Part shown: piece by piece, positions 1 to 45,237 of the stretch
How positions within the stretch are numbered: position 1 is the stretch's first letter
Layout: every line of letters starts with the position of its first letter
Origin: a virus
IMG/VR virus record: IMGVR_UViG_3300043172_000354
DNA: 45,237 nucleotides
Reading direction: 5' to 3' (one strand)
Notes under the pieces: generated by a model
Told to the model about the DNA's origin: nothing
The model's input: only the letters and a program-made list of their open reading frames with translations
Database searches by the model: none
Program-made: the position numbers and the translations under genes

Positions 1-127
1 GTCGATCAGTGAGGTTTCGCCGGTCAACCAGTTCATCATTGAATTACGCTGGAAAGCATCGCCCACGTCTCGATCGAACTGCAAACTATCAAACCTTGCT
101 TTCATTTGTGGCGAAAGATCCCGAACG
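1..127. repeat. Terminal exact direct repeat, copy 1 (= 45111..45237); assembly circularisation overlap
   Basis: The first 127 bases (gtcgatcagtgaggtttcgcc...aagatcccgaacg) are reproduced exactly as the last 127 bases. The repeat lies inside a reading frame that continues across the junction. Confidence 0.95.
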
Positions 128-3100
128 GCTTGTATATCAGCCTTAGACGGAATGCCCCGGAACTCCGCCATGTACTTAGGATCAACATAAGAACTAATCA
201 AGAATTCAGATACCTGCTGTCTTGGTGCGATCTTGGCATTAAGGAATAACTTAGATTTTGCAAACCCGCCGAGCATCCGAGCAACTATATCGCTCAGTTC
301 GTCACCCTCAAATAACTGGCCCTCGATCCGCTCAATAAATTGTGTAATACGTTTTGCTTCTGCTGACCTGCCTTTATCTTCCATATCGACGATCACATCA
401 GGCGTATAAACGGCTTTTACTTCTCGCAGCGGTTCGGCCAGGCCAACGTACTTCGCAGAACTTATGCTTGAATTAAAGACGGTTTCAAAGAATCCAGCCA
501 ACTTTAGCGGATTAGATGTCCCAACTCGCTCCTTAAGCAAACCCATGCTTTCGACAAGCTGATTAGAACCGGCCAACTTTTTACCCTTCGGACCGCGAAC
601 AATCGACCGGCGAGCAGGCCAGTAATTCTCAACATTCGCAATGTCAATGAATTCGATCCTTGCGCTCACTTCGTTAATAGCCTCTTTATTATGCCCGTCC
701 ATCACCTTAGAACCAACCTGCCGGGCAACCTTTTTCTGCTGAGGTGTCAAGGTATCGATCATATTTTCAACTATCTCAACAGTGAAACCTCGCATTTTCT
801 CCTTAACGCCTTTGGTTACGCGATCCATTCCATCGTTGAGAAGAACGGCTAGGTTATGACTATTTCGCGTGTGCATAAATATTGACATTATTTCGTTTGA
901 CGTAAATTCAAAGGAGGCTGCCTTGCCGGAATTATCCTTAAGCGTGAAAGTGTGAACTTCTGGCTTTGGAGCGTGACCGAACGCCTTGCTTACCAGAGAA
1001 ATATCCTTCGGCCTCATAGACCAATTAAGTATATCCTTGCTGGTTACGCCATTATCTTTTTCGATTTCCCTCATTAAGTCCTTTGCGCCGTCAGCGTGCA
1101 GGACTTGATTATCGACCCCGGTATCAATAACATCGTAAACAAATTCAGTCATCGCTCGCTTAGATTCAGACCAAAGCTTATAAGTCCCCGGCCGTGCGCC
1201 GGAAACGGCATCGGAAACAGACTCAAGATTATCGTGTATGAGTTTGAATTTCTTAAGAACCTTTGAACTTGCCTCGCCGCCCAGGTTAGCCGGAATGGAC
1301 GGAGGAGCAGTAATCTCTCTTTTAATCGCTGATCTTCGCCGTATGGCCTCTTTTGCGTTCTCATCCTTCGCCGCGATGGTATCAGCCTCATTCTGGAATC
1401 TGAGAGCGATAAGCGTGTTCGTTATTTGGTCAAGTGATTCAATTGAAAGCTGATTGATAGCGAATGTCTTGGCTGTCATGCCGCTAAGTTCCGTAAGAAT
1501 CTGTTGTGCCTGGAACGCCGCGACCGAATCTTCTCGTGCGGTATCAAGTACCTGCTGCGCCATCGCCCGCATTTCAGCGTTTTTGAGCTCTGTTTCAGGT
1601 CTGATCTTGCCTAATTGCAAGCTGTCAAGAATGCTTTGAGCGGTTCCCGCAAACTCCGGCAACATCTTTTTCGGGTTGATTGCTTTGATTGCTACCTTGA
1701 GACGGTTGACTGCATCCCGCTTTTCAGCACGTAAAACGCCTTTTTCTACTGCAGCGGTAATCTTTTCAAGGTCCCTAGGGGACTTCGCTTCGGCAACACG
1801 CTTCAGGAAATCGCCCCGTTTATCCTTCTCGACGAATGTTTTAACTAGTTCAGACGCAGTTTTTCTTCTTGCATCTGTGAGATTTTGAGCTTGCTTGAGT
1901 TTGAGTATCTCGACTTTTGCCTTCTCGCGGGACTCCTTTTCGCCAGCCCGGAAACCAACAGCCTGACCTTCTTCTTGCGCTTCTCTTAGTTCTCTGGCTA
2001 CGTCTTTTTGTTCCTTGTTTGTTCTTAAGATTTCAGCAATTGTCTCGACCGGAACGCCAGTTGATTTATGCAACTTCTTGATACGACTCTTTAGTTGAGC
2101 GGCTGTTTCCTTTTTTGTTGTCGCGGCTTTTCTTTCCGCGCGAGTAAGTTTGCCCTTTTCGCCCGGTGCTCTTTTAGATAATCTTCCACGCGTTTCGACA
2201 TCTTCTTTAGTCTCCAATAATGGTTCAATTTCGATTTTATGTTCCTGCTCAATGCTTGCAGTTGCTTCGTTTATTTCGGCAACCGTGAATCCCTTATGGA
2301 ACATATCATGCCGCATAGCTGCTATTTCACTAAAAGGATCACCTGATGACATCATTTTGTGAAGGACAATCTGAGGTATGCCGCCGATTTTCTTTCTTGC
2401 GGCTTTTGTCTCTGATAACCTCTGAAGGAATGATGTTACATCCAGTTCGCCGCTAGTCTCTTCAACGCCAGTCTTATTCCGACCGAAACCCTCCATTACT
2501 ATTTGGTCAAATGGCGTACCCTCAGACCGCTTAAAGGTGATATGCTTCCTCAATGATGGATCACCTTCAAGATGTATCTTAACTTCACCCCTGAATTTCT
2601 CGGGTATAAACGCCTTGCCTAACTGAATCTCCTGGCTTTGTAATTCTATCGCTTCCGCTTCAGCCTGGAAAACAGGATCGTTACGAACAGCCTCGGTTAT
2701 CTGTTTCTTGGTTGCGGCGGTAGACTGAACATCGGCTTTTGCCGGTGCTTTGCGCTCAATAACCTCATCCGCTTCAAATCCCTCAAAGAAGTCATCGAAG
2801 TTGTCGTCTGATTTTATTGTTGCTGGCCTTGCTTCTTGGGCTTGGGCGGGCGAAGGCTGGACCACCAGAGTTGATATTATTTGGTCTGCCGAAAAGACTG
2901 CGTATTCAGTAGCCCCGTCAGTCTTGACTATAATGCCATCAAACCCATCTTCTTTAGCTTGGTCTATTTGCTCTCGCGTAGGCGACCTGTCAAGAATAAG
3001 TGGGTTTTCTATATTAAGCTTAGCAGGTCTAATATTGGAACTTTGAAACGTAAATGCCTTCGCTTCAATGCCTATCTCAGCCGCTTCTAGAATGAAATCG

Positions 3101-4767
3101 CTTTCATGCGCCCTACTGAATGTGGCCGCTATTTCTGGGTCATCTGAAAAGAATATAGCCCCTTCTGCGTTTATGTTTTCTGTGTTTTTACCGCTTTGTG
3201 TAATGTCGAACTCGTCGAAACCTTCCGGTGTGCCATGAAATACCGTCAATGGTTCGCCTTTTTCGTCAACTACCTTAGTTTTAGTTAGCTTTGGCTTTTC
3301 CTCTGCAATAGCTTCTGCGTTAACCTGCACTTCCCCCTCAACCTCAATAGACGGCTCGGGGGTTACTTCGACTGATGGGGCTTGCTCTGGGGCAACCTCT
3401 GGAGCTTCTTCGACAGCGATATCCTTCTTGACCGCATTCGCCACCTGTTTAATATTCTGAACCCCACGCCTAGTCAAGTCTACGCCAACACCCACACTTG
3501 CCGCACCGCCGCCCACAACACCGCCTACGAAGGCGTTCTCTGGCATAGCCGCCAATCCCGCCACTATCGCCTTCTTCGCAGCCAGCGACTTGTCAGTGCC
3601 CTTAGTGGTCTCTTTGCCAAAAACCTCTAAGAATGTCTGGTTGAACCCGGTTATTCCTTCTTGGGTTGCGTTCTCGGCGATGAGTGTTAATCCCCGCCGT
3701 ACTGATAAACCCTCTTTAAATCCCTTAATAATGCCCGGCAAGACAAGCATTTCACCACCGATCTCAGCAGCTTCGGATAGTTCGCCAATAATCAAAGATT
3801 TACGAACCGATCCACCAGCCTCTAATTGAGCCTGAAACGCAGCTCCACCCTCAGATTCACCAAGCATTGCAAGGCCAACCAGGGGATTGCCTGTCAATAA
3901 GCTGATTCCAACAGCAGCACCCATCGAAGGTACACCGCTTTGCACGGTAACTCGCATCAACTTGGTAATAGGAGCATTGCTCATAGTAGCAATATCTTGA
4001 GCAGCAGTAAGGTCTTTTTGTTTCCCGCGGAGTATCTTTGCTCCAATATCAGGCAGTCTCGTTACAAGGCCCATGGCCGCACCAGCAACAGAACCCGGCA
4101 AAGGCTTATCTGCCCGTAGGAAATCAATTCTATCAGGAGGAATAAGGAAGTTATTGCCGTCCAGAGGGTTTCTTAGACTGCCAGTAGCAGGGTCCATCTG
4201 AGGAGTTATAGCCTCAAATTGACTTCTCACAGCAGCATCAATATCCTCGCTAATTCCGCCACCGGCAAGCTGAATAGCTCTACGCTTTATTGCTTCGAGT
4301 GTAGAAGCTCCAAGTCCGATAGTTCCAATCTTCAAATTCAAAGGAGTTTCCCGTAAGGCTGTTTTGATGTCATCCCTAAGATTGCGATTAACAACAGACG
4401 CAGACATCTTTTCAAGAGACTCGCCATACAACTCCTTCGCTATACCGGGCGCCATGAATTGAGCATCGAATAAATCAATACCAAACAATTCGGACATAAA
4501 GAAACTATTCTCTATTTCCATTTTGAAATCTTCCGGGTCATCCAGAGTATTGATAAGCTCAGTTGCCATCTGACTTCTAATGGCAGGATGTTTCAGTTTA
4601 TCAGGGTTGTGGTATATGTCATCCATAACTTGCTTACGGAATTCAATTGAATCACTTACATCACCCCCAATAACCTCATCGTCAGAACCCCTGAAAGTGG
4701 GAGGCTCTTGAACGGCTACGGCTTGCTGATCTTCAATAATTTCATCGTCCGAAGTTCTAAAGGGCAT
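1..4767 (-). CDS. Giant internal virion/ejection polyvalent protein, N-terminal 1,589 codons (continues across the circular junction into 44271..45110; 1,868 aa in total)
   Basis: Absent from the ORF track because there is no stop inside the window. I split every line from 4767 down to 1 into triplets and found no tta/cta/tca in the frame p mod 3 = 0. The ATG at 4767..4765 overlaps the TAA of the upstream gene (TAATG). The frame matches ORF 44271..45215 after collapsing the overlap (45215-45110=105). It is the last and largest gene after the nozzle and two internal-protein genes, the T7 gp16 slot. Gly/Ala-rich hydrophobic stretches occupy aa ~223-430, and an ART-like motif block aa ~500-625. 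Confidence 0.9.
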   Translation of the reverse strand, partial: MPFRTSDDEIIEDQQAVAVQEPPTFRGSDDEVIGGDVSDSIEFRKQVMDDIYHNPDKLKHPAIRSQMATELINTLDDPEDFKMEIENSFFMSELFGIDLFDAQFMAPGIAKELYGESLEKMSASVVNRNLRDDIKTALRETPLNLKIGTIGLGASTLEAIKRRAIQLAGGGISEDIDAAVRSQFEAITPQMDPATGSLRNPLDGNNFLIPPDRIDFLRADKPLPGSVAGAAMGLVTRLPDIGAKILRGKQKDLTAAQDIATMSNAPITKLMRVTVQSGVPSMGAAVGISLLTGNPLVGLAMLGESEGGAAFQAQLEAGGSVRKSLIIGELSEAAEIGGEMLVLPGIIKGFKEGLSVRRGLTLIAENATQEGITGFNQTFLEVFGKETTKGTDKSLAAKKAIVAGLAAMPENAFVGGVVGGGAASVGVGVDLTRRGVQNIKQVANAVKKDIAVEEAPEVAPEQAPSVEVTPEPSIEVEGEVQVNAEAIAEEKPKLTKTKVVDEKGEPLTVFHGTPEGFDEFDITQSGKNTENINAEGAIFFSDDPEIAATFSRAHESDFILEAAEIGIEAKAFTFQSSNIRPAKLNIENPLILDRSPTREQIDQAKEDGFDGIIVKTDGATEYAVFSADQIISTLVVQPSPAQAQEARPATIKSDDNFDDFFEGFEADEVIERKAPAKADVQSTAATKKQITEAVRNDPVFQAEAEAIELQSQEIQLGKAFIPEKFRGEVKIHLEGDPSLRKHITFKRSEGTPFDQIVMEGFGRNKTGVEETSGELDVTSFLQRLSETKAARKKIGGIPQIVLHKMMSSGDPFSEIAAMRHDMFHKGFTVAEINEATASIEQEHKIEIEPLLETKEDVETRGRLSKRAPGEKGKLTRAERKAATTKKETAAQLKSRIKKLHKSTGVPVETIAEILRTNKEQKDVARELREAQEEGQAVGFRAGEKESREKAKVEILKLKQAQNLTDARRKTASELVKTFVEKDKRGDFLKRVAEAKSPRDLEKITAAVEKGVLRAEKRDAVNRLKVAIKAINPKKMLPEFAGTAQSILDSLQLGKIRPETELKNAEMRAMAQQVLDTAREDSVAAFQAQQILTELSGMTAKTFAINQLSIESLDQITNTLIALRFQNEADTIAAKDENAKEAIRRRSAIKREITAPPSIPANLGGEASSKVLKKFKLIHDNLESVSDAVSGARPGTYKLWSESKRAMTEFVYDVIDTGVDNQVLHADGAKDLMREIEKDNGVTSKDILNWSMRPKDISLVSKAFGHAPKPEVHTFTLKDNSGKAASFEFTSNEIMSIFMHTRNSHNLAVLLNDGMDRVTKGVKEKMRGFTVEIVENMIDTLTPQQKKVARQVGSKVMDGHNKEAINEVSARIEFIDIANVENYWPARRSIVRGPKGKKLAGSNQLVESMGLLKERVGTSNPLKLAGFFETVFNSSISSAKYVGLAEPLREVKAVYTPDVIVDMEDKGRSAEAKRITQFIERIEGQLFEGDELSDIVARMLGGFAKSKLFLNAKIAPRQQVSEFLISSYVDPKYMAEFRGIPSKADIQAVRDLSPQMKARFDSLQFDRDVGDAFQRNSMMNWLTGETSLID

Positions 4768-6674
4768 TATGGTTTCCTCACAATTTCACCGTCTGTGTCA
4801 ATATATAGTGTACCACTCGGAAAAGCATCGAAAGCAGCTTGATCTTTCGGCGTATTCTCTGGGACTTCGATTTTGTTTGTCTTAACGCCAGGTACGGAGT
4901 TTGCTCGGGCGATGTCAATAGCCTGCTGTGCAGTTCTGCCATCAATAATCGACTGAGCAACGGAATCCTTGCCCGCCTGAGACATGGCTTGGAATGTTTC
5001 GCTTTCTTCAGCAGTCTTAAATCGCTTCCTCGCTATGGCTTCTTCTTCTGTATCTAAAAGGAAGCCAGCTAAGCCAGGTCCGCCAGGAACAAACATTAAG
5101 GCTGCCCCAAGCTTACCCTCTTTTCGTCTTATGAATTTCTCAAGGAAACCAAGAGTAACGTCCTCGATTGCCGGTCTTGACAACGCACTAACTTGTTGCT
5201 GCCATTTACGGGTAAAATCAGGATCGTCAGCATTAGCATCAGCCCACTTGTCAAGTATTGTCTGATTACGTAAAAAGGCGATTCCGATGTCTGCCACGTT
5301 CTTAAGATAATCTCCGTCATCCCTATCGAGCACGCTGATTGCTGCCGACCGAACTCTGTCAAGAGAGGCTTGACCTCTTTTCACTTCGGGCCGCCCCAAT
5401 ACTGGGTTCTTTTTGACGTCCGCAGATTCAGCAGCGGTACTGATATTATCAAGGTTAGTTTTGCCCTCAGTAGCCTTTACGTCCTTAGATACCTTCTTAT
5501 ATTCAGAAATGGCTTCATCGTAAGACAACTCGCCGGATCTTGTTCGCCTGAGTATTCCATCAACCTGGATATTGGTTTCGTCAGAAGTTACAAAATTGGC
5601 CTTCTTGTTAGAATTATTAACCGATGATATATAGGAATTAGCGGATATAATTTGCTTATTCTTTTCAATTTCCGTAATTGGCTGTGCTTTTATAAAAGCG
5701 TGAATCCCATCGAATTCGCCATTATTAAGCTTTCCTTTGATCTCGTTAATCGAATTGTCCGTAACTTGCTGGGACTCCAATTCTGTTTCCGCTCGACTAT
5801 TTCTCACTTGGGTTTCTAGCGACGTCCTAGCCTTTTGTTTTTCTGGTTCCGGCAAGCCAGATGCGTTGATAATATCAATACCAACTTGTAACTTGCCGTC
5901 AGGGTCTTCTATATCAACCGTAGCTTGCCAAGCATCGAAACCAGCAGTTGTTACATTGCCTCGGATTATCCCTGCACGTTTGACATCAGCGTCGGCCTTC
6001 CATGACTCATATCCCGCCATCCTCACCTCGTCAGTGTCCAGCAAAGGATTTTCCCAATCCTCTATTAGCTGGATTTTCGGATTTCCTTTTTCATCTAATA
6101 CCGGTACTGGTTCTCCGTCCTTGTCTTCGGTGGCATACTCTAAGCCGAAATAGTCCATGCCATTTGCAAGCTCAAGCTGGTAATCGGATTCCTGTAACGC
6201 ACTGGCGGTTCTTCTGGTGGCTTCTTTTATTCCCAGGTTCCAATTTTGAGTATAATTTTGAACGTCCTGTGTTTGCTTGGCTCCGAACACACGCCTCGTT
6301 TGCGATAAATCCTCGTTTGCTTTCCATAATTCAAATTCGTTTGCAGCTCTTTTGTTGGTGAATTTGTACGAACTTGTCTGGCCAGCCTTTAGATTGGGAA
6401 TGTATGTTTCGGTATCAGCGTTGGTCTGTAAATCCTGCTCATAGTCGAAAAACTTTGTCAGGTATTCAGTCTTTGAAGAATTAAGCTGGTTATGAAATTC
6501 AGCCTTTTCTTTCTCCTGTATGAATGCTACGCCAAACTCAGTGAGTGCTTCGCCTGTTTTTGCAGCACTTCTATTTCCCTGCGTAGCTGCCTGAATGTCA
6601 GCGGACGAAAGCTGGCCCACACCACTGAGAGGAGCTAATCTTTGATTTCTATATTGTTGTGATATTTCGGGCAT
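4767..6674 (-). CDS. Internal virion (ejection/core) protein, 635 aa
   Basis: Long ORF between the small internal protein and the giant protein (T7 gp15-like slot). Its stop overlaps the next start (TAATG). The sequence is Q/E/K-rich and alpha-helical-looking with no enzymatic motif recognised. Confidence 0.6.
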   Translation of the reverse strand: MPEISQQYRNQRLAPLSGVGQLSSADIQAATQGNRSAAKTGEALTEFGVAFIQEKEKAEFHNQLNSSKTEYLTKFFDYEQDLQTNADTETYIPNLKAGQTSSYKFTNKRAANEFELWKANEDLSQTRRVFGAKQTQDVQNYTQNWNLGIKEATRRTASALQESDYQLELANGMDYFGLEYATEDKDGEPVPVLDEKGNPKIQLIEDWENPLLDTDEVRMAGYESWKADADVKRAGIIRGNVTTAGFDAWQATVDIEDPDGKLQVGIDIINASGLPEPEKQKARTSLETQVRNSRAETELESQQVTDNSINEIKGKLNNGEFDGIHAFIKAQPITEIEKNKQIISANSYISSVNNSNKKANFVTSDETNIQVDGILRRTRSGELSYDEAISEYKKVSKDVKATEGKTNLDNISTAAESADVKKNPVLGRPEVKRGQASLDRVRSAAISVLDRDDGDYLKNVADIGIAFLRNQTILDKWADANADDPDFTRKWQQQVSALSRPAIEDVTLGFLEKFIRRKEGKLGAALMFVPGGPGLAGFLLDTEEEAIARKRFKTAEESETFQAMSQAGKDSVAQSIIDGRTAQQAIDIARANSVPGVKTNKIEVPENTPKDQAAFDAFPSGTLYIDTDGEIVRKP

Positions 6675-6706: not shown

Positions 6707-7456
6707 TTATGCGAATACGCCTCCGCCTGGAATACTTGGTCTACCGGCATTAGTATTGAATAGCGAAGTAGAGATAAAACTTGGTTTTTTCTTGACTTTA
6801 AAAAGTAAACTCTGTAATGATTTCTTTTTGACCTGACTGACACTTCCGGCAACCTGACTACCGCTTCCGGCGACCGAACCTGGCGTCTTCGGACCGCCAA
6901 AGTTACTCAACAGGGCTATCGTTCCAATTCCCTTAGCAAGATCAGCGGCTCCTCTTACCCTTGCACTTCTCCTGGCAAGCTGGCCTTGATACTTCACTAA
7001 CGCTCCTTTATTCCTTAGTTCCGTAGCTTTTACACCATAGTTTCGGGATATTACCAAAGCATCAGCTTCAAACTCCCTTGAGGTGTTTGCCAGGATCGAC
7101 AAATTAGAACCTGTGAGTTGACCGCCGTTAGCTGCCATCTGTGCTATTTGCGAAGCTTGAGCACGTTTGGCCTGTTTGCGTTTCTCTCTGGATTCTTGCT
7201 GGCCGACTTCCTCAAATGACTCAGCCTGTGCGTCGATCTGCTGCTGTTGAATTTCGGCTAACCTGGCAGTTTCTTTGCCTTCTTTTAAGGTCTGGCTGTA
7301 AGATAGTGCTAAGCCTCCACCCGCAAGCGCAAGTGATACAGGGTCGAATCGCTTGAACGGGTGAACGAAGAATATTTGATTACCGCGAACAACCGCCTTT
7401 GCCCCATAAGGGATATGCCTATTCGGGCAAATCATTTTAAATAGTTCATTTTTCAT
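6707..7456 (-). CDS. Putative internal virion protein, 249 aa (T7 gp14-like slot)
   Basis: ORF directly after the GNAT gene with an 11-nt overlap. It has an A/Q/G-rich coiled region (AEIQQQQIDAQAESFEE...RAQASQIAQMAANGG) and a Gly/Ser/Lys-rich tail, typical of small podoviral ejection/pilot proteins. Confidence 0.5.
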   Translation of the reverse strand: MKNELFKMICPNRHIPYGAKAVVRGNQIFFVHPFKRFDPVSLALAGGGLALSYSQTLKEGKETARLAEIQQQQIDAQAESFEEVGQQESREKRKQAKRAQASQIAQMAANGGQLTGSNLSILANTSREFEADALVISRNYGVKATELRNKGALVKYQGQLARRSARVRGAADLAKGIGTIALLSNFGGPKTPGSVAGSGSQVAGSVSQVKKKSLQSLLFKVKKKPSFISTSLFNTNAGRPSIPGGGVFA

Positions 7457-7895
7457 TTGTTGTCCTTGAGAAAAGATATGCGTCGTCTCCGTTTGGTAAA
7501 TAACTTTTCATGCCTTTTGGTGTTTCATTTTTAAATCCAAAGAACTCTACAAATTTAATGCTTACTTTGTTGTTCACATTAACAGATGATTGAAACCTTT
7601 TTACGCCAAACCGTTCGCCTTGATCTTTCAGAAACCTTTTTACGCTTCTAATGGCTACAATATTCCTGTCGCTTCTGATTAAACTAAACCAGACCTCGCA
7701 AACACCAGGCCATAGAATAGTAGCACCGAAACACGCTATCGGTCCACCTTCGTCCTCAAGCACCCAAGCCGGACCTCTACCTTCGTCGAAATACTCATAG
7801 TAGACTTCCCTGAGCGATTCTTGCTCAAGCACCAGAGACGGTATATCCGATGCGGTCATCGGTCTTGTTATAGGTTTAGTTATTTCTTTAATCAC
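7446..7895 (-). CDS. GNAT-fold (acyl-CoA N-acyltransferase-like) protein in the virion module
   Basis: 149 aa. The segment ...GPIACFGATILWPGVCEVWFSLIR...RSVKRFLKDQGERFGVKRFQSSV..N.VSIKFVEFFGF resembles the GNAT core (beta4-alpha3-beta5). It overlaps the nozzle gene stop by 8 nt. Confidence 0.5.
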   Translation of the reverse strand: MIKEITKPITRPMTASDIPSLVLEQESLREVYYEYFDEGRGPAWVLEDEGGPIACFGATILWPGVCEVWFSLIRSDRNIVAIRSVKRFLKDQGERFGVKRFQSSVNVNNKVSIKFVEFFGFKNETPKGMKSYLPNGDDAYLFSRTTNEK

Positions 7896-10311
7896 CGCTA
7901 ACCTGCACTTTCGATTGAATCGCAGTTATATTGAACGGGAAAGGATCTTCCTGTACGAACTTGATCTGAACCTCGTCTGACCAACCGCCGTCAACCTCTA
8001 ATCGTATCAGTCCGGTATAAGGGTCATTTGAACCGTTGGTTGTATCGGGCCATTCCGAGAACATAATATCATACATCACAGGTTCGGTAAATTGTTCTTT
8101 TAATCCATATTGCCCGGTCATTGTCTTGTAGAAACAGGCGTCAATCTCATATACCTTTTTCTTGTACCCTATTGAAAACCCGTTTTGGGTTTGGACTTCT
8201 ATCGGAAAAGTCAAGAACGTAGATGTGTACGGAAGCCCGATTGTAGCACGATTTACTTTGAAGTTCCCCAAGTCAATTTCGCCATCCGTTACAGTTGCCT
8301 CAGTAGATAATGCCTCTGTGAGAGTATAGCCTGGATATACGCCAGAACCATACGCGCCGGACCCATACGGAACAGGGCTTGAAGTTAGCGTATATTCATT
8401 ACCCTCAGCTATCATCACTTGAACAGTCTCACCCTCTAAATGATCGAGCCCTGTTATTGTGTCAGTTAAAATACCAGAATAAGTTAAGCCCGAATCCACA
8501 AACCAAGCATCATCTGGATCGGTTCCCCAGTCCTGCGGCTGCATTTGCTCGATGTATCTAATATCGCCACCGGCTTTTGTTCGCTTTACTACAACCCAAA
8601 CCTGATCTTCGTCTGCTCCAGGTATAACGGCCACTGATTCAAACTCTCCATCAGTAATATGCCTTGCCCACCCAACCACACCCTCATTCCTGTTGTACGT
8701 CAACGATACAAGCTGGCCATCGCTCCTGACGAACCACACTATATCGTCAGGCCGATTTTGTACGGCTATGTCTATCAGACCGGGAGATGTTATATGTTCT
8801 GCCATGACAGTAAGCTCAGGAGAAACGAAACCGTCGCTCTGTAGGTCGTAGATCATATCCCGAACCTTACGCCGGTTACGGTCCACGAATACGATAGATT
8901 CACCGATTAGAGCCGGTTGCATATCAGCACTTCCGACATCGGCCTGCCTTTCTGCTCCGAAACTAGCCGGAGTTAATACAGACGTACTTGACTGGCTGGA
9001 AATCCTTATGGCAGATCCGCTTGTTCCTGCGATGATACCGTTTTTGTCCTGGAGCCATAGAATAGGATTTTGTTTCGTTGCGCTAATTTCTTCGTTAATC
9101 GCCCCATTATCTAAAGTTGATTCCCGCATACTCTCAAGGTCGAAAGATGTGCTTGTCCAGAAACCGTTTGGTTGGTAGGTTGTCCCTGCAAGACATAGCC
9201 TGTTTTGGTACATACAGATAGATCGCGGATAACCCCTGCGAGGACTCCAAGCGCCCTCAGCCCATTTAGTCGTTGCGGCCGTCCCAGCTAGTGTGCTCGT
9301 TACCGTCGCGGTTACGACCTTTGTACTGGTGTAAGCCGTTACCTCAACGTACCCGGAAACATCGGAGTTATAGGAGGTAAGAGTATAATCACAACTTCCA
9401 GCAGTCCGATCAGTCATTGTAACGCGGTATTCATAGCCTGCGTCGGGTTCGTTAAAGGAGTATTCGATATTGGCGGCATCGCCGTTAAGTTTGGGATATA
9501 CCGGCTCCCATGAACCAGCGTCAATAACGCTCTTTTCCAATGTCAGCAGACCGGTCCACGTTCCCTCTAATGTCAACAACCCATCGCCCTCTACGGCAAC
9601 GGTGGAGCTACTTGCATTTGTCGCGATATTACCCGACGTATAAGAGTTAGCTGATTTTTCGATTATCTTCCATAGAGAGCCAACATTGTCAGCGGTAAAG
9701 ATAGCAGACGAAGCAGTCAGGGTGATCGTGCCTGTAGTGGCCGATGGTGTTATGGTGGTTGTCGTGGTGTTCTGGTCAAGGAAAGGCCCCCACTCCCAAT
9801 CTACATCGGCGATCGTCCATTCGTCATGGTCGATCCTAATCAGCTTTTGGGGGGGATCGTCCGGGTGAACAATATACATTACGTCGTTTGACTGGACATA
9901 TTGTATTTCTGATATTTGGTCTTCGCCGTAAACTGTTGAGGTTGCATAAATATCATCATTGTCATCAAGGATTTGACCAGCAACTCCATTTACGCAACGG
10001 AAATACCAGATATTACTATCCGAAAACGACAAAACATAGGCATCATCCGTAGAACTTTCAAAAGAAACTAAATGAGAAACCCTATCGGCATCTGCTACAT
10101 AAATCGTCCCGGCTCTCCGCATTGCGGTTCCCTGTGGTTTGACGAGGAAATTCTCCATCGTCTCAACGCCCAGGTACTTCTTGTCGAGATCAACACGGTA
10201 TCGAAGCAATGGGCTTAGCTCCCCTGAGTTGAAAGCAGTATTCAGGGACGCAGAGAAACCAGTCAGACAAAGAATAGGTAACAGTAATATTAGTAGCAGT
10301 TTTTTAAGCAT
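7888..10311 (-). CDS. Tail nozzle / tail tubular protein B-like protein with an N-terminal signal-peptide-like extension
   Basis: 807 aa, close to T7 gp12 in size. The motif FNSGELSPLLRYRVDLDKKYLGVETMENF..KPQG...RRAGT resembles N-termini of podoviral nozzle-type proteins as I recall them. It is preceded by MLKKLLLILLLPILCLTGFSA. A GGAG lies 4 nt before the ATG. Confidence 0.6.
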   Translation of the reverse strand: MLKKLLLILLLPILCLTGFSASLNTAFNSGELSPLLRYRVDLDKKYLGVETMENFLVKPQGTAMRRAGTIYVADADRVSHLVSFESSTDDAYVLSFSDSNIWYFRCVNGVAGQILDDNDDIYATSTVYGEDQISEIQYVQSNDVMYIVHPDDPPQKLIRIDHDEWTIADVDWEWGPFLDQNTTTTTITPSATTGTITLTASSAIFTADNVGSLWKIIEKSANSYTSGNIATNASSSTVAVEGDGLLTLEGTWTGLLTLEKSVIDAGSWEPVYPKLNGDAANIEYSFNEPDAGYEYRVTMTDRTAGSCDYTLTSYNSDVSGYVEVTAYTSTKVVTATVTSTLAGTAATTKWAEGAWSPRRGYPRSICMYQNRLCLAGTTYQPNGFWTSTSFDLESMRESTLDNGAINEEISATKQNPILWLQDKNGIIAGTSGSAIRISSQSSTSVLTPASFGAERQADVGSADMQPALIGESIVFVDRNRRKVRDMIYDLQSDGFVSPELTVMAEHITSPGLIDIAVQNRPDDIVWFVRSDGQLVSLTYNRNEGVVGWARHITDGEFESVAVIPGADEDQVWVVVKRTKAGGDIRYIEQMQPQDWGTDPDDAWFVDSGLTYSGILTDTITGLDHLEGETVQVMIAEGNEYTLTSSPVPYGSGAYGSGVYPGYTLTEALSTEATVTDGEIDLGNFKVNRATIGLPYTSTFLTFPIEVQTQNGFSIGYKKKVYEIDACFYKTMTGQYGLKEQFTEPVMYDIMFSEWPDTTNGSNDPYTGLIRLEVDGGWSDEVQIKFVQEDPFPFNITAIQSKVQVSGD

Positions 10312-10340: not shown

Positions 10341-12656
10341 TTAGTTTTGATTCGCCGCGTTATCCATGTGCGATATCATTCGCCAAACATTAGTAGTTGA
10401 TGTTGCTGTTGACTCACAAACCCACATCGTAACGTCGCCGCTCGCTGTCGTTAAATCTGTAGTGCCGCACTCAAGCAGGTTTCCGTCAACATCGTAGACT
10501 ATCGCTCCTTTTGATATTACGGTTATTTCTTGACCGATCACACCATCATCAAATCTTGAAAAAGTAGCTCCGGTTGTGCCGGTAAACCAGAACTTACCGC
10601 CACTGACAGAAGGCGAAGTATCTGTATCGGTAAAAGTCGTTGAAGTATTGACTGTCTGCACTGTTGGCACTGCTGCCGTAACCCATAAATAGCCATTGAC
10701 ATTCTCGCCATTGTCGTAAAGCATAGCTACGCCAGCCGTCAATGGTATGTCAACATAATGCGTATAAGTGTCAGCTGCGAGTCCTCTCCATATTCTTATT
10801 TCTGAATAAGGGGCTCTTCCGAAACAGGTTAGTAATATAGCACCCGTTTTAGTTACAAGTGCCTCCGTAACTTCGCTAACCTCGGCACTCTTTATTGTTT
10901 GTCCCTTTGGGTTTATTGAAGCTATCCGGTAGAAATATTCCTCGCTCGGGTCAAGATTCCCAACTGGTGTTGAATCTTCTTGTACTACTGAGAAGATACT
11001 TGGAGTTGCAGTCATCAAAGGATAGTCCACTATGCCTTCACCTTCAGCATTAGTAACTTGCCAGCCCGCATTGCCATCATTCAGCACTTGGACATTAGAA
11101 CTAAGCAATCCACGGTTTAATTCAAGTTCAGTATTTAAACCTGCATCTGATGACAATATTGTTATACCCGAAGTAGCTAGTTTTCCCCCCGTTATCTGGA
11201 ATCCAGATTTGCTATTTCTTAAGTCAAGCTGAAATCTTGTTCTGGGAGAATTGATGTATATTTCAGGTTTCGTTTTGTGGCTAATTGCAGCAAAGTGCTT
11301 AGTGAGGAAAGTGCAACCAGTGATTGATACCTGACTATTATCTATTATAGCCCCACCATCGCTTATCTCAATCGGATATTGGTCTGTTACAGTACCAATA
11401 AAATCTATCCCGGCAGGATTTTCTTCAGCACTGTCAACCCGAAGGTATGACCACAGGATGCAATCGTTTATTCCAACCCTTGAGTTCTTAATTTTTATTC
11501 CAGGCACGCTTTTGTATGTCTCTAAATGACAGGCGTTGAATTGGATTGCAGTGCAATCTAGTAAGTCAAAAGTACCATTTACACATGCGTTAAATTGACC
11601 TCCGTTGCAATTCTTAATCTTAGCTAGTCCATTAAACTGATGCCAAGGACTTCCGTGACAGCTATCCATAATAAGTCCGTCGCCAGAAAATTCATTTTTA
11701 TAAAGGTAACTACCTTCTGTTATAGTTGTCGGGTTTGCTGCTACGGGTGTTTGTAAACTGAAACTAACCTCTTTAAATGTTACATTGTCACAAACCTGCG
11801 TACATCTCACTCCATAAAGCAGATAGTTCATTTCAACATTCGTCATTGTAAAGAATGAATTATTGAGCCTAATAAATCCCTGCTGTAATGTCTGGGTGGT
11901 ATCACCTAATACTTTTAAATCTCTGACTTCATATCGTAAACCAGGAAATTCCAATGCCGTAGCAGATCCAGATGTCTCATTGAGGTACAAAAGGAAATCT
12001 TCGTCTAAGGCAGCATCGTTAAGATGTAAAACCGTGCCAAAACCCTGACCTCTGAAAGTGAATTTAATATCATTAGTCGTGCTATCAAAATAAACAGAGT
12101 CTTCAAATTTATAAGTGCCATTCTGGAATACAATATTGCCGCCTATTGTACCGATGGCATTTTCTAATGCTTGCAATGGTACTGAATTATTTGTTGAATC
12201 ATCAGCAACGCCACCCCACCATTCCACTAAGAATCCGCTTTGAGGTGTCTTGCTGAATACGACGGTTCCAAGGCCATCGAATAAATCTTGCGGGCTTGCT
12301 GAAACATCACCGCTGATCGTAACCACAATCCCAGTGTCTATCGAAAGCTTTGCGCCCTTAAAGAATACGCAAGGCACTGATAATGTTAGATTGCTCGATA
12401 CCCTGTATGTGCCGCTTGGAAAAAGCAATGTCTTTCCTATGGCGTTTGAATTGAATAGGGCTGTCCTATCATCTGTTGTTCCGTCACCAGTAGCGCCATA
12501 CTCCTTAACGCTTACCCCACCTTTAACTGCATTGAGATAATCATTAAGATCAGTTCCCCATGTGTCAATATCGCCAATATCCGGCAATGAATAGAGTGGT
12601 GCTCCAAAAGCCGTAACACTGCAAAGTAAAACTAAGATTACAATAAACTTTTTCAT
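10341..12656 (-). CDS. Tailspike with right-handed beta-helix (pectate-lyase-fold) depolymerase domain
   Basis: VKEYGATGDGTTDDRTALFNSNAIGKTLLFPSGTYRV is the classic pectate_lyase_3/tailspike N-cap motif. The start is set at MKKFIVIL (12656, preceded by AAGGGAAG). The track start at 12695 is also possible. The N-terminus is signal-peptide-like (MKKFIVILVLLCSVTAFGA/PLY). Confidence 0.8.
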   Translation of the reverse strand: MKKFIVILVLLCSVTAFGAPLYSLPDIGDIDTWGTDLNDYLNAVKGGVSVKEYGATGDGTTDDRTALFNSNAIGKTLLFPSGTYRVSSNLTLSVPCVFFKGAKLSIDTGIVVTISGDVSASPQDLFDGLGTVVFSKTPQSGFLVEWWGGVADDSTNNSVPLQALENAIGTIGGNIVFQNGTYKFEDSVYFDSTTNDIKFTFRGQGFGTVLHLNDAALDEDFLLYLNETSGSATALEFPGLRYEVRDLKVLGDTTQTLQQGFIRLNNSFFTMTNVEMNYLLYGVRCTQVCDNVTFKEVSFSLQTPVAANPTTITEGSYLYKNEFSGDGLIMDSCHGSPWHQFNGLAKIKNCNGGQFNACVNGTFDLLDCTAIQFNACHLETYKSVPGIKIKNSRVGINDCILWSYLRVDSAEENPAGIDFIGTVTDQYPIEISDGGAIIDNSQVSITGCTFLTKHFAAISHKTKPEIYINSPRTRFQLDLRNSKSGFQITGGKLATSGITILSSDAGLNTELELNRGLLSSNVQVLNDGNAGWQVTNAEGEGIVDYPLMTATPSIFSVVQEDSTPVGNLDPSEEYFYRIASINPKGQTIKSAEVSEVTEALVTKTGAILLTCFGRAPYSEIRIWRGLAADTYTHYVDIPLTAGVAMLYDNGENVNGYLWVTAAVPTVQTVNTSTTFTDTDTSPSVSGGKFWFTGTTGATFSRFDDGVIGQEITVISKGAIVYDVDGNLLECGTTDLTTASGDVTMWVCESTATSTTNVWRMISHMDNAANQN

Positions 12657-12695
12657 GATTCTTCCCTTTAGATTATTTTCGTTAGCTACTGACAT

Positions 12696-13016
12696 TTATT
12701 CCTGTATTACATTAGGATCGATTATTTTTGCTTTATCGGCTAACTTACCTTTGCCTTTGAAGTATATAGCCAACAAATAACGCCGTATTATAAGCTTTAT
12801 CCATTGCTTCTTTGTGTGCTGCGGAACCGCCTTGCTAATATCGCCAGGGTCATTAGGATCTGGAACCGTAGGAATCGGTGCTACTTCCAGAAATCCAGCC
12901 GAAAACTCAGCAACCTTATCCGCTGGAATAACGATAGTAATTTCAACATCACCAACCGCGGCGAATATATTACATGCTAATGCCATCAGTAAAACCATTA
13001 TTATTAGTTTCTTCAT
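12696..13016 (-). CDS. Small signal-peptide protein, unknown function
   Basis: 106 aa with AAGGAA 5 nt upstream of the ATG. N-terminus MKKLIIMVLLMALACNIFA/AVGD. Confidence 0.55.
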   Translation of the reverse strand: MKKLIIMVLLMALACNIFAAVGDVEITIVIPADKVAEFSAGFLEVAPIPTVPDPNDPGDISKAVPQHTKKQWIKLIIRRYLLAIYFKGKGKLADKAKIIDPNVIQE

Positions 13017-13025
13017 GTCGTTTCC

Positions 13026-14120
13026 TTAATTATCTACCAAGACCAAATCAAATGCCGCAATTACGCCCATATCTGCTGAAGTCGAATCGCATCTTATTAA
13101 AATATCTGTTTTTTCTGGTATACCTACAGGCACGCCATATTCGTATATCCAGAACTGAGAGGCTGTTGTCATCACTTCCACTTGCCCTTTGATTGCGAAT
13201 ACGCCAGTTGATCCATTATTTACCCTTGCCCGCCATGTGAACACTGCTGAACCTGCCGTTGTTGGATTAGCTCTCGACCCAAGACCTACATAACCCTTGA
13301 CGAAATAACCTGACTTGCCTGATGATACTGTAAATGCCGCCTGCTGTGTCTGACCGTCCATTGCAGCGATAAATGTACCGGCAATAACAGTTGCGTCAAT
13401 TTCAACGGTTATGTCACCTTCGTTCGCGGCTGACGATCCAGCATGGAGTACAATTGACCTATAAAGCCTTACATACTGATTAAGCATAGCAACATCAGTC
13501 TGTCCGTTCAATATCACGGTTTCTGTGGTTATTGTCCAGATACCACTTGAGTCGCTTAATCCCTCAACACTTATAACCCCCGCTCCAGTGTCGGCACTTG
13601 ACGCAACCCTATAAGTATCGCCTGATTCATTAGGGAAGTTTCTCTTTTGCGGGAGTGCTGTTTGAGCAGTTGATCCGCTTGTCATTGGAGTATGAGTTAA
13701 GGTTGTACCGGAAGTGACTTCGTTTACAGTTCCAAACTCACCGTTCGTATCATTTATAACTATATCACCAACCGCAACCCCGTCACCAGTGAAGTTTGCA
13801 CCAGTGTCAATTAACGTAATAAGACTTCCGCCAGTTGCAGTACCCGAACTGACTAATACGCCTACATCGTCAACATCCGTACTTACAGCCTCTACAGTTT
13901 TATTTACGTTTGTGTCCCAGAAAGTGTATAACCCACCACCACCCCAAACGTCTTCCGGCCCACCATTCACCGATTCGTTATGTCCATACTTGTTCATCTG
14001 AGAATGGCCGTAAACTTTACCCTTAGCCACTTCCAGCATGAAGTCTGTTGATCCAATTCGTGACGCATAGCAATTAAAAGTAATCGCCAATATTAAGATT
14101 AAATATAGGAGTTTTTTCAT
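13026..14120 (-). CDS. Putative tail fibre/receptor-binding protein (beta-rich) with signal-peptide-like N-terminus
   Basis: The start is moved to ATG 14120 (MKKLLYLILILAITFNCYA/SRIG), just after the TAA of the upstream gene (TAATATG). The C-terminal half (...NGQTDV...YVRLYRS...EGDITV...GQTQQAAFTVSSGKSGYFVKGY...) looks like a jelly-roll. Confidence 0.5.
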   Translation of the reverse strand: MKKLLYLILILAITFNCYASRIGSTDFMLEVAKGKVYGHSQMNKYGHNESVNGGPEDVWGGGGLYTFWDTNVNKTVEAVSTDVDDVGVLVSSGTATGGSLITLIDTGANFTGDGVAVGDIVINDTNGEFGTVNEVTSGTTLTHTPMTSGSTAQTALPQKRNFPNESGDTYRVASSADTGAGVISVEGLSDSSGIWTITTETVILNGQTDVAMLNQYVRLYRSIVLHAGSSAANEGDITVEIDATVIAGTFIAAMDGQTQQAAFTVSSGKSGYFVKGYVGLGSRANPTTAGSAVFTWRARVNNGSTGVFAIKGQVEVMTTASQFWIYEYGVPVGIPEKTDILIRCDSTSADMGVIAAFDLVLVDN

Positions 14121-14121
14121 A

Positions 14122-15816: not shown

Positions 15817-16667
15817 AGATCATACACACTATTTAATGTATTATTTGCACCATAGGCCCAATCGTTATTATCTTCGTCCTCATACCAAGACTCATCACCG
15901 TTCTTTTCCCTGGCGTGAAGATAAGCCTCGTTTAGTTCAACTTCTATCTTTTGTTCCCGTCTCTGATTTTCAGTTACATTAGGAGCGAGTATGTAAGCGA
16001 TTCTGGCAGAGATCAACCTGTGGAACCATACACGCATTTGAGTGACATCGCTAACAATTGCGCTACCTTGATAGCCTATCCACTTATTGTACCGAATAAA
16101 TGCGTCTACCTGGTTTGTGTAAATAACCGATCCCTCTGGGTAATATGGGAAATTCACTCTGTCGCAGTCGGACCCGCTTGTCTTTAGCAACCAGAGAATA
16201 TCTGATGGACGTTTGAAACCATACTGCCAGTTCCCGTGTTCAAGGGAATCCGTGTCTTCCGGGTAGCCCGCCGCATTGACCCGGGAATTTGTCCCATCGC
16301 TTAAAGTTTCCCCGTCAGTCCAATCACCTGTAGGCTTTGTCACCAAATACACCGTATCAGATAGAACCTCGACAACCGTACAAGTAACGGCGCTCGTACC
16401 GCCAGTGATCGTACCGCCAACATACCAGACTGCCGGCGTTGGTGCGGCATCAATAGTCAGCTTATGGACCTGCACTAAATCCTCGAACTTTACCCGCTTG
16501 CGGCTGAAATACCAATCCTCGGCCAAAAGCTCTCTGACGACACTTTCAAAGATCGCGTTTACCTTTACGGCGTCAGGCTTCGAGGACTCCAGAGACGTAA
16601 TCATACTTTCGCCTATGAGCAGCAATCCAATATTCGCTATTGCAGTTTTTTCAGTATCGTTTGCCAT
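15813..16667 (-). CDS. Tail adaptor / tail tubular protein A-like
   Basis: The N-terminus TAIANIGLLLIGESMITSLESSKPDAVKVNAIFESVVRELLAEDWYFS matches the gp11-type pattern (..A...IGE..I.SL......A......L....W.F). It has no signal peptide and sits downstream of the capsid genes. Confidence 0.65.
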   Translation of the reverse strand: MANDTEKTAIANIGLLLIGESMITSLESSKPDAVKVNAIFESVVRELLAEDWYFSRKRVKFEDLVQVHKLTIDAAPTPAVWYVGGTITGGTSAVTCTVVEVLSDTVYLVTKPTGDWTDGETLSDGTNSRVNAAGYPEDTDSLEHGNWQYGFKRPSDILWLLKTSGSDCDRVNFPYYPEGSVIYTNQVDAFIRYNKWIGYQGSAIVSDVTQMRVWFHRLISARIAYILAPNVTENQRREQKIEVELNEAYLHAREKNGDESWYEDEDNNDWAYGANNTLNSVYDL

Positions 16668-29832: not shown

Positions 29833-29843
29833 ACCAGTTCCAG

Positions 29844-29885: not shown

Positions 29886-29907
29886 TTACTTTTTAAGGAC
29901 ACGAAAA

Positions 29908-30575: not shown

Positions 30576-30619
30576 AATTAACTAAATTAGTATGAAATCA
30601 GTATTTGAAAGGTTGAACA

Positions 30620-44270: not shown

Positions 44271-45237
44271 TTAAAATTTAGGTGCTTTCTTCTTTTTGTC
44301 GTCAGTTTTGGTTTGCGCTATGACTGTTTGAGCAATATCCTTCGCCCCGTAATAAGGCAAGCCCTTGAGTGATGCGATCGCATTGGCCATACTATCAATT
44401 GCAACAAATAATTCTGTTTTCCATTTCAATTTACCTTTATTCGGACCACTCTTATATTTTTCCTCAGTTACGAAATGCTTGCCGGCCAAAGCGAAACCAC
44501 CTATTCCGTCAAGTAGTATATCCTTCAATATCCCCTCAATTGTGCCATCCTGAAAACCACTTTGTCCGAATGTTGGCTTGTCGGCGAAGATATTGAAGTA
44601 ATACCCAAATGCCTCAGCGAACCACCCTCCAAAGAACGGTAACGACAATACATCTTTCACGGCGTCCCTCATGGCATCGGCTACGTCCTTATGCCGCTTC
44701 TTGATCAGAACTGCCCATGCCAGATTATAGGCGGTAAAGGCCGCGAGGTTCATAGCAACGCTGCCCAGGATACGACCGAGCCTTAATGCGTCTTCGTTGG
44801 TCTTCTTACTGTTAACATAATCAGATACGCCATTATTGACCATTCTCACTAATTGCTCACGTTGCGACATGAACATTGTCAGGGACCTAGTTAACGGACT
44901 GAGACTACTGCCGAGCAATGACCTGTCTTTTACATTCCACACAGGCTGCGTATGGCGAACTACCCACTCAAAGCGGTCTTTGAGTAGAGCTTGCCCCGCT
45001 TCGCTGTCTATAGCTACGTCTGGGTTGTTGTCGACAACCTCAGCCTTTGTTGCTCTGTAAAGGTCAACAATAGCATTTGTGTCAAAGAATTTCATCCCAA
45101 GTGCAGTATGGTCGATCAGTGAGGTTTCGCCGGTCAACCAGTTCATCATTGAATTACGCTGGAAAGCATCGCCCACGTCTCGATCGAACTGCAAACTATC
45201 AAACCTTGCTTTCATTTGTGGCGAAAGATCCCGAACG
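44271..45237 (-). CDS. Giant internal virion/ejection polyvalent protein, C-terminal part (unique part 44271..45110, 279 aa + stop)
   Basis: The track ORF 44271..45215 begins at an internal Met. The frame stays open to the window edge and joins 1..4767 in phase through the 127-bp overlap. The C-terminus is lysine-rich (KTDDKKKKAPKF). Confidence 0.9.
   Translation of the reverse strand, partial: VRDLSPQMKARFDSLQFDRDVGDAFQRNSMMNWLTGETSLIDHTALGMKFFDTNAIVDLYRATKAEVVDNNPDVAIDSEAGQALLKDRFEWVVRHTQPVWNVKDRSLLGSSLSPLTRSLTMFMSQREQLVRMVNNGVSDYVNSKKTNEDALRLGRILGSVAMNLAAFTAYNLAWAVLIKKRHKDVADAMRDAVKDVLSLPFFGGWFAEAFGYYFNIFADKPTFGQSGFQDGTIEGILKDILLDGIGGFALAGKHFVTEEKYKSGPNKGKLKWKTELFVAIDSMANAIASLKGLPYYGAKDIAQTVIAQTKTDDKKKKAPKF
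45111..45237. repeat. Terminal exact direct repeat, copy 2 (= 1..127)
   Basis: Identical to bases 1-127 by direct comparison. Confidence 0.95.

Follow-up and report, generated by a model that had tools for sequence, protein, structure and literature searches.

The virus record IMGVR_UViG_3300043172_000354 of IMG/VR, a stretch of 45,237 nucleotides (nt) that was analyzed over its whole length and is called the window here, begins with a region (1..4766) for which the list of open reading frames (ORFs) holds nothing of 100 amino acids (aa) or more, and the question that this locus raises is what the region encodes. It holds most of the phage's largest gene, which continues at the other end of the window and specifies a protein of 1,868 aa. 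With a probability of roughly 70%, we consider this protein to be the largest internal virion, or ejection, protein of the phage, a counterpart of T7 gp16 and of class D of the internal virion proteins (IVPs), with the build of a polyvalent protein. The internal virion module of T7 comprises IVP-A, which belongs to an acetyltransferase family, IVP-B, IVP-C, and IVP-D (Hardies 2016, PMC4819975), and IVPs host domains destined for the cytoplasm of the host, such as the RNA polymerase of N4 and the methylase of H66 gp60 (PMC4819975); polyvalent proteins, for their part, are predicted to be packaged and injected (Iyer, Burroughs, Anand, de Souza, Aravind 2017, PMC5512222). Our assignment is based on gene order and on the homology of a C-terminal module to Bbp10 of Bordetella phage BPP-1 and gp16 of Octadecabacter phage OANV1, and the same two lines of evidence support the suggestion of a first-pass annotation of the window that the product is most likely an ejected inner-core protein, packaging and ejection being what we infer from them.

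One gene across the junction of a circular assembly

The first and last ends of the window are identical over exactly 127 nt, with no longer terminal repeat, and removal of one copy of the repeat leaves a circle of 45,110 nt, bases 45111-45237 being a duplicate of bases 1-127. On the minus strand, the frame that starts at 4767 is free of stops down to base 1, which gives 1,589 aa on translation, and in the circularized molecule it continues into 45110..44271 to give exactly 1,868 aa and a stop at 44271-44273. The gene thus has two parts in the window:

1..4767, minus strand: 5' part of the gene, codons 1-1589, an open frame from the ATG at 4767-4765
44271..45110, minus strand: the 3' remainder, codons 1590-1868 and the stop codon (44271-44273), in frame across the junction

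The first-pass annotation had described a stop-free minus frame from 4767 to base 1, in phase with an ORF at 44271..45215 once the 127-bp overlap is collapsed, and had read the two as a single 1,868-aa gene crossing the ends of the window; each of these statements holds, and the circle has one ORF of 1,868 aa at this place. The first 4.7 kb looks empty, and only an internal-ATG fragment of 314 aa (44271..45215) is listed at the other end, because the ORF lister drops frames that run off the end of the source. A GAGGA ribosome-binding site precedes the start ATG, which shares bases with the stop codon TAA of the 635-aa gene lying upstream (TAATG), and this overlap suggests translational coupling between the two genes. 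The runner-up ORF of the genome is 807 aa.

Two contigs on record encode the identical protein of 1,868 aa. In JGI contig 3300043219 Ga0484908_000016, also of 45,237 nt, the gene is internal at 29431-35037, and 25,607 nt around it are the exact reverse complement of the circularized window, junction included. In the protein the junction falls at aa 1589/1590, within the motif LIDxTAxGMKFFD, across which homologs align without a gap. It is extremely improbable, then, that the long ORF arose from a chimeric assembly or a false join of ends that are not contiguous in the real genome: the junction does coincide with an overlap of the assembler type, 127 being a typical maximum assembler k-mer, but the identical gene lies inside another contig with exact flanks, and at least six homologs of 1,600-1,730 aa share the same layout of N-terminal and C-terminal modules with an alignment that is continuous over the junction. 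Because the site is internal in the JGI contig, the flanks are exact, and the junction lies in a gap-free conserved motif, the 127-nt overlap marks an arbitrary break of a circular assembly, and the genome has no physical end there. A genuine terminal repeat of the T7 type was considered as well and rejected, as the 127 nt fall within a conserved motif of coding sequence. When the contig break of a circularly assembled phage cuts its largest gene, that gene can vanish from gene calls, and such contigs should be rotated before annotation.

The C module and the virion gene order

The homology that carries the assignment lies in the C-terminal half of the protein, which we call the C module:

1..2070, minus strand: C module, part 1, aa 900-1589 (phrog_28077; AlphaFold2 model)
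44274..45110, minus strand: C module, part 2, aa 1590-1868, to the C terminus of the protein (profile and model)
44703..44792, minus strand: conserved hydrophobic helix, aa 1696-1725, followed by KKRHK, a candidate membrane span (hydropathy)

A hidden Markov model (HMM) of the C module matches Bbp10 (NP_958679, 2,052 aa) with an expectation value (E) of 2.3e-36 and OANV1 gp16 (URC15457, 2,986 aa) with E 1e-29 over aa 2024-2934, and a jackhmmer search from Bbp10 recovers the C-module family over Bbp10 aa ~1150-2015; identity to the two proteins is low, ~20-25%, and is visible by profiles only. Both share with the 1,868-aa protein the homologous module of ~900 aa, a slot after tubular tail protein B and small internal virion proteins, and a layout in which an N-terminal domain and one or more effector domains precede the C module. 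Pfam domains are LPD22 and PBECR1 in Bbp10, and LPD22 and ART-PolyVal in OANV1 gp16. The latter therefore carries the same ADP-ribosyltransferase (ART) domain as the 1,868-aa protein, whereas Bbp10 has a PBECR1 nuclease in its place, and in both the N terminus is LPD22 and not the N module described below. A literature search for virion proteomics of Bbp10 or OANV1 gp16 found none, the OANV1 paper being one without mass spectrometry.

The extended IVP-D family includes Bbp10, Pseudomonas phage F116 p60, H66 gp60, and the C terminus of N4 gp50 (PMC4819975). Like the 1,868-aa protein, F116 p60 and H66 gp60 are giant proteins that close the structural module ahead of the lysis genes, and H66 gp60 is structural in the virion and has a domain destined for the cytoplasm embedded in it (PMC4819975). 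F116 p60 also carries ART-PolyVal (Pfam E 1e-39) preceded by an LPD domain, which is LPD23 in place of the N module, and its C-terminal part gives no significant match to the C-module profile (E 0.045). N4 gp50, in which the virion RNA polymerase lies within an IVP-D homolog whose C-terminal region is required for encapsidation (PMC4819975, PMC5512222), is likewise a giant protein with a cytoplasm-acting enzyme in an IVP-D-type carrier, though its cargo is an RNA polymerase.

The only PHROG match of the whole protein is phrog_28077, a family of unknown function (E 2e-44, aa 940-1855), and the C-module family comprises PHROGs 28077, 22978, and 9880 and has no Pfam model. Where about 600 aa had at first been left as an unassignable C-terminal region, the module measures ~950 aa and proves to be a very large family: a 12-sequence profile run against 1.84 billion cluster representatives (clusters at 50% identity) finds ~10,800 proteins at E ≤ 1e-3, of which 5,056 reach E ≤ 1e-30, and the matches listed mostly cover nearly the entire profile. 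The module sits at the C terminus of proteins of 900-3,800 aa, and in 200 sequences the median number of flanking residues is 4 after it and 628 before it. Nine Pfam effector or LPD families occur in 18 long representatives, namely GGDEF, PBECR5, PBECR1, RadC, InPase, ART-PolyVal, LPD23, a 2'-5' RNA ligase-type (2H-type) domain, and a methyltransferase. A comparison with polyvalent proteins of phages and conjugative elements, which the first-pass annotation had proposed, therefore fits, as the relatives carry GGDEF, PBECR, RadC, InPase, ART, and methyltransferase domains. The 1,868-aa protein resembles polyvalent proteins in having their signature ART-PolyVal domain and in being encoded among virion genes, and is unlike them in that ART is the only enzymatic domain recognizable in it.

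The AlphaFold2 model of the C module (aa 900-1868, 38-sequence alignment) has a predicted local distance difference test score (pLDDT) of 80.7 and a predicted template modeling (TM) score of 0.79, and is mostly helical with a small beta element. Foldseek finds 71 neighbors of this model in BFVD at E ≤ 1e-3 (best about 1e-21, TM 0.5-0.64). Nearly all are the C-terminal parts of giant proteins from uncultured phages that bear the names nuclease, MuF-C, PolyVal ART, or LPD, and one is from a cultured phage, a 'structural protein' of Tenacibaculum phage Gundel_1; E values of 1e-22 to 1e-10 occur among those named PolyVal ART, nuclease, LPD, and 'structural protein'. The hydrophobic helix at aa 1696-1725 has a family-mean hydropathy of 1.35, and its 19-mer hydropathy is ≥1.4 in 35 of the 38 aligned members. 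Searches at the sequence level add little: among 50,697 GenBank phage records, tblastn finds no match to aa 1-1589 or to the C-terminal 885 aa, a search with a distant family member finds only one 4.8-kb fragment, the whole protein and the C profile have only chance matches among PDB sequences, and NCBIfam gives no match and PADLOC only a chance-level one.

The second line of evidence is the order of the genes. On the minus strand, a portal gene (PF12236) is followed by genes for the major capsid protein (PF20911), a tail protein (phrog_394), four fiber- or spike-type proteins, and the nozzle, and then by a GNAT-like gene, a gp14-like gene, the 635-aa gene, and the 1,868-aa gene, the last of which is in one strand block with terminase-size, portal, capsid, adaptor, and nozzle genes:

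7888..10311, minus strand: tail tubular protein B (nozzle), 807 aa (phrog_376, E 1e-177; PDB 8ck1_A 'Tail Nozzle', E 9e-81)
7446..7895, minus strand: GNAT/acetyltransferase-like protein in the IVP-A (T7 gp13) position, 149 aa (phrog_1249, E 5.5e-6; PF00583, E 8e-4)
6707..7456, minus strand: gp14-like internal virion protein (IVP-B), 249 aa (phrog_418 'internal virion protein', E 9e-18)
4767..6674, minus strand: protein of 635 aa in the IVP-C (T7 gp15) position (synteny only)

The gp14-like gene also matches PF24072 (T7_gp14) at E 6e-4, which is below the curated cutoff, and the 635-aa protein has no homolog in Pfam, PHROGs, or the PDB. Nozzles of HTVC010P-type pelagiphages, of a Vibrio phage, and of BcepC6B share 31-36% identity with that of the window phage. 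The same order with annotated internal virion proteins is found in pelagiphage HTVC035P, BcepC6B, Vibrio 1.182.O, OANV1, and BPP-1, where the nozzle is followed by small genes, a protein of 650-950 aa, and then one or two large proteins, and in HTVC035P, Vibrio 1.182.O, and OANV1 the acetyltransferase comes directly after the nozzle. This is the arrangement that Hardies 2016 sets out as IVP-A to IVP-D (PMC4819975). Gene order in the window and in these five cultured phages thus bears out the T7 gp16-like slot that had been proposed for the gene, although three smaller proteins, and not two as first stated, lie between it and the nozzle. A scan for promoters and terminators downstream of the 1,868-aa gene stayed at chance level.

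T7 gp16 is like the 1,868-aa protein in that its gene closes the module of internal proteins after the nozzle and is the largest there, in its largely alpha-helical prediction, and in joining an enzymatic to a structural part. It differs in size, 1,318 aa versus 1,868 aa, and in its enzyme, an N-terminal lytic transglycosylase that acts in the periplasm, as against an NAD+-dependent ART that is predicted to need the cytoplasm. BcepC6B gp17, Vibrio 1.182.O gp17, and HTVC035P gp47, proteins of IVP-D type of about 830-865 aa, have the equivalent final position; the phages of this type have the closest cultured relatives of the nozzle of the window phage, and their IVP-D-type protein has no fused cargo. 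In Vibrio 1.182.O, the ART protein gp16 (566 aa, Pfam ART-PolyVal) and gp17 (BcepC6B gp17 family, E 1e-82) are encoded by separate adjacent genes, and the ART and IVP-D-type functions that are divided between them would be united in one polypeptide in the window phage. Several weak colinear HMM matches accompany the comparison of the C module with the BcepC6B gp17 family alignment. Pairwise BLAST and phmmer searches against the internal proteins of HTVC035P found nothing for the C or N module, and HMM comparison with the internal proteins of HTVC035P, Vibrio 1.182.O, BcepC6B, and T7 left both modules unmatched, the only hit being that of the ART domain to Vibrio 1.182.O gp16. The N-terminal part of this last protein (gene at 12943-14643 of locus L004) is homologous to HTVC035P gp48 (gene at 13302-14771 of locus L002), a 'putative internal virion protein' (jackhmmer E 9e-82). 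In that lineage, therefore, ART seems to have been added to an extra internal protein that stands between IVP-C and IVP-D.

The same gene order bears on two other views of where the protein acts. One is that it is a late cytoplasmic effector or anti-defense protein, active in the producing cell or released at lysis, and not a component of the virion. Its placement in the virion is indeed what we infer, and the nucleases, methyltransferases, RadC, and GGDEF domains of its relatives would also suit intracellular counter-defense. We nonetheless regard this view as improbable: the gene has the orientation of the internal-virion-protein genes that come straight after the nozzle and is apparently coupled to them in translation; the equivalent slot holds known virion proteins in relatives (H66 gp60, which is structural, and N4 gp50; PMC4819975); a BcepC6B gp17 homolog in phage KL4 is annotated 'virion structural protein', and the Tenacibaculum phage relative 'structural protein'; and a constant C-terminal carrier of ~950 aa with swappable cargo would be hard to explain for a soluble enzyme.

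The other view is that the protein is an external or tail-tip structural protein, such as a central needle, a fiber, or a tail-associated lysin, and not part of an internal core. The gene does lie within the tail gene region, Bbp10 and OANV1 gp16 are annotated 'lysin / crystallin-motif protein', and distant relatives adjoin tail-fiber and lysis genes. We hold this to be decidedly improbable, as muralytic, beta-helix, and fiber-type domains were not found in Pfam, PHROGs, or NCBIfam, fiber or spike candidates lie elsewhere (10341-12695 and 14122-15816), and an NAD+-dependent enzyme would have no substrate outside the cell. Moreover, this large protein is predicted to be alpha-helical to a large extent, the AlphaFold2 models of aa 100-450 and aa 900-1868 being almost entirely so, and to have hydrophobic helices.

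The distant relatives just mentioned stand at the end of the structural module beside holin and lysin genes. Genes around them encode XkdX, Peptidase_S74 fibers, a holin of Dp1 type, lysins of choline-binding or SH3 type, and a serine recombinase, and two of these relatives, P0035 (contig L011, 5136-13244) and P0198 (contig L010, 50-4222), lie between fiber and lysis genes. This context points to temperate phages of Gram-positive hosts, possibly not podoviruses.

Elsewhere in the virion block, four genes stand between the phrog_394 tail protein (15813-16667, likely tubular tail protein A or adaptor) and the nozzle (region 10341-16667, minus strand); their products are a tailspike-like protein of 564 aa, two proteins of 373 and 106 aa, and a pectate-lyase-like protein of 784 aa. 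Tubular tail genes A and B lie side by side in HTVC035P, Vibrio 1.182.O, BcepC6B, BPP-1, and T7, where the fiber genes come after the internal proteins. In OANV1, gp12 (locus L014, 2766-5105) is called 'portal protein' in GenBank and is located between a tail tubular protein and the acetyltransferase, and the annotation is probably wrong because the gene sits at the nozzle (tubular tail B) position. Outside the virion block, a plus-strand block at 28483-42307 encodes RecT, an SNF2/DEAD helicase, an IstB/DnaC-like ATPase, a RecU-like protein, a DNA methylase, and an AAA_23 protein, and the phage thus combines T7/epsilon15-type virion genes with a replication module that is not of T7 type. No RNA or DNA polymerase was seen among the larger ORFs scanned, which makes an early dependence on host enzymes plausible. 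A metallo-beta-lactamase-fold protein (34332-35240, plus strand) weakly resembles Apyc1, an anti-Pycsar protein (E 8e-6, below cutoff), and adjoins an HD-domain protein; ORFs 34332-35240 and 33884-34534 (plus strand) overlap by ~200 nt, and one start is therefore probably mis-set.

The ADP-ribosyltransferase domain and the N-terminal half

Upstream of the C module, borders drawn from BLAST among 35 homologs and from local profile searches divide the protein as follows:

4381..4767, minus strand: acidic leader, aa 1-129 (little conserved; aa 1-100 have a net charge of about -16)
3472..4380, minus strand: N module, aa 130-432 (Gly/Ala-rich, all-helical prediction)
3268..3471, minus strand: Pro/Glu/Val-rich linker, aa 433-500 (from the sequence; unaligned among homologs)
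2872..3267, minus strand: ART-PolyVal domain, aa 501-632 (Pfam PF18760)
2068..2775, minus strand: M2 module, aa 665-900 (local jackhmmer)

As judged from its sequence, the protein contains a bona fide ART-PolyVal domain: the match to PF18760 has E 6.7e-15 and 56.5 bits, against a curated cutoff of 31.2, and spans profile positions 1-132 of 140. An ART-like domain had been placed at 2872..3275 in the first pass, in agreement with these coordinates. The top matches of the family profile in the PDB are weak and mostly to ARTs (cholix toxin at E 0.015, Tpt1, diphtheria toxin, and PARP10/12). The active site of the ART-PolyVal family, which belongs to a clade related to Tox-ART-HYD2, is defined as H-Y-D (Iyer 2017, PMC5512222). 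The catalytic His of strand 1 is kept as His511 in F-H-G-T, in 11 of 11 aligned family members, and aligns with the HGT of cholix toxin; Asp610, in G-F-D-G (GxDG), is invariant in the family alignment, and its placement in strand 5 is probable. The active-site Tyr of strand 2 is not kept, being Phe539 (A-I-F-F-S), and the second aromatic residue is Phe550; these two are Tyr in the H-Y-[E/D] class, and in the cholix alignment they are the positions of the two Tyr residues that stack on nicotinamide. By sequence, then, two of the three H-Y-D residues are retained and the third keeps its aromatic character.

These substitutions lend some weight to the idea that the protein is packaged and ejected but that its ART is catalytically dead, a binding or structural module only. 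Both of the Tyr residues that sandwich nicotinamide in cholix and diphtheria toxins are replaced by Phe (F539 and F550), and the published active site calls for a Tyr (PMC5512222). We judge this to be unlikely, although it is an alternative to be taken seriously, as His511 and Asp610 are invariant across the family alignment, the Pfam score is far above the cutoff, and the first, strand-2 aromatic position varies among ART-PolyVal members, with Y, F, W, or H in many of them. Tyr-to-Phe changes in exotoxin A keep substantial activity. An ART requires NAD+, which is available only inside the cell. The best-known packaged enzyme of this kind is T4 Alt, an ART that is carried in the head, injected with the DNA, and modifies the RNA polymerase of the host (PMC5512222); it is unlike the domain described here in belonging to the R-S-E clade and in being a small separate head protein of a myovirus (PMC5512222).

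The N module is the best-conserved part of the protein among close relatives, with 46-74% identity in 32 of them and 42 invariant columns. The first-pass annotation had pointed to Gly/Ala-rich hydrophobic stretches at aa ~223-430 suited to membrane insertion; the stretches are present, but they are not merely hydrophobic, forming as they do part of the clade's best-conserved region. Two hydrophobic segments are conserved, aa 270-306, with a family-mean hydropathy of 1.76, and aa 411-432, and membrane insertion by the Gly/Ala-rich stretches would be consistent with them. The AlphaFold2 model of aa 100-450 is all alpha with a pLDDT of 62, and a Foldseek search of the PDB with it was uninformative (best E 2.4); the module has no match in Pfam, NCBIfam, PDB sequences, or the Foldseek PDB set. 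A scan for N-module loci found only four viral loci and one contig of a metagenome-assembled genome (Bryobacteraceae), and the N-module protein is downstream of a recognizable nozzle gene in three of the four IMG/VR relatives. Some IMG/VR relatives with the N module lack the C module, which makes the two modules separable. T7 gp16 (locus L013, 6596-10552) also has a Gly/Ala-rich stretch at aa ~288-440 (lsagiigagvdpls / ggdadyagaalggfvfgagmsais) whose composition resembles that of the N module, with an hhalign probability of 0.3%, which is not significant. The M2 module occurs in ~18 relatives, usually directly upstream of the C module, and its profile has only chance matches in the PDB. In a Pfam search, the N, M2, and C modules match no model, LPD families included.

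The assignment and its meaning

Several of these observations weigh against the assignment. The comparison with gp16-class proteins that had been proposed for the protein fails for T7 gp16 itself, to which no similarity is seen: the hhalign probability is 0.1% for the C-module profile and 0.3% for the N module against what is a single-sequence target, and T7 gp16 is absent from the Foldseek PDB matches of the C-module model. This alignment is a weak test because the target is a single sequence, and Hardies et al. needed profiles joined stepwise. Against a profile of 18 sequences of the BcepC6B gp17 family, the C module aligns colinearly over 356 columns, but with E 0.011 and a probability of 3.8%, and its model has no neighbor in the PDB by Foldseek (best E 0.5, TM ~0.1). 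Table 2 of PMC4819975 counts Bbp10 among the IVP-D proteins, and the region matched there may or may not be the C module. No muralytic domain was seen in the 1,868-aa protein, in its neighbors, or elsewhere in the virion module, whereas T7 gp16, Bbp11, and BcepC6B gp16 carry one, and a lysozyme or SLT domain stands at the position of the 635-aa gene in BPP-1 Bbp11, BcepC6B gp16, and OANV1 gp15, which the 635-aa protein lacks. The C module is not tied to a core of the T7 type, because the context of its distant members is not podovirus-like, and catalysis by the ART is uncertain because both of the nicotinamide-stacking Tyr residues are Phe. Finally, packaging, ejection, and enzyme activity are proposed by analogy: each step that goes past a protein encoded in an IVP module and homologous to Bbp10 and OANV1 gp16 is taken from T7, N4, and T4 Alt.

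Within the reading that we prefer, that of an internal virion protein of IVP-D type, the ejection of T7 gp16 and its formation of a channel serve as the working model. A few copies of the 1,868-aa protein would join the gp14-like and 635-aa proteins in a core on the portal inside the capsid, and at infection these proteins, for the most part unfolded, may precede the DNA through the nozzle and form a conduit anew across the cell envelope. The hydrophobic helices at aa 270-306 and 411-432 of the N module and aa 1696-1725 of the C module would insert in the cytoplasmic membrane or dock at it, and the ART might thereby be exposed to cytoplasmic NAD+ and ADP-ribosylate a host target in the first minutes of infection, as T4 Alt does RNA polymerase. 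The C module would be the constant carrier or structural part, and the upstream domains exchangeable cargo, an ART in the window phage and a nuclease, GGDEF, RadC, pyrophosphatase, or methyltransferase domain elsewhere.

A wider reading is tentative, and we think it more doubtful than probable. The C module of ~950 aa may be a structurally new and very widespread virion-delivery module, a general carrier across several morphotypes, that brings interchangeable cytoplasm-acting effectors also in phages with XkdX-type tail and Gram-positive lysis genes, and the N module may be a second new element, membrane-inserting or channel-forming, that replaces the LPD22 and LPD23 N termini of Bbp10 and F116 p60.

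Proteins of this kind are already known, both as IVP-D homologs with cytoplasmic domains (PMC4819975) and as polyvalent proteins with ART-PolyVal (PMC5512222), and F116 p60 and OANV1 gp16 are direct precedents. New are the way in which the modules are combined in this protein, its N and M2 modules, which no annotation covers, and an idea of how large the C-module family is and how isolated it stands in structure. The family is very abundant in metagenomes, lacks both a Pfam model and a solved structure, and is hardly represented among cultured phages. The window phage would be a further case of a short-tailed phage that fuses a host-modifying enzyme, the ART, to its ejection machinery, and the shared module of ~950 aa ties together the literature on IVP-D (Hardies 2016) and that on polyvalent proteins (Iyer 2017). 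BPP-1 and OANV1 offer cultivable handles on the role of the C module, be it in packaging, ejection, or membrane insertion, and on the target of ART-PolyVal.

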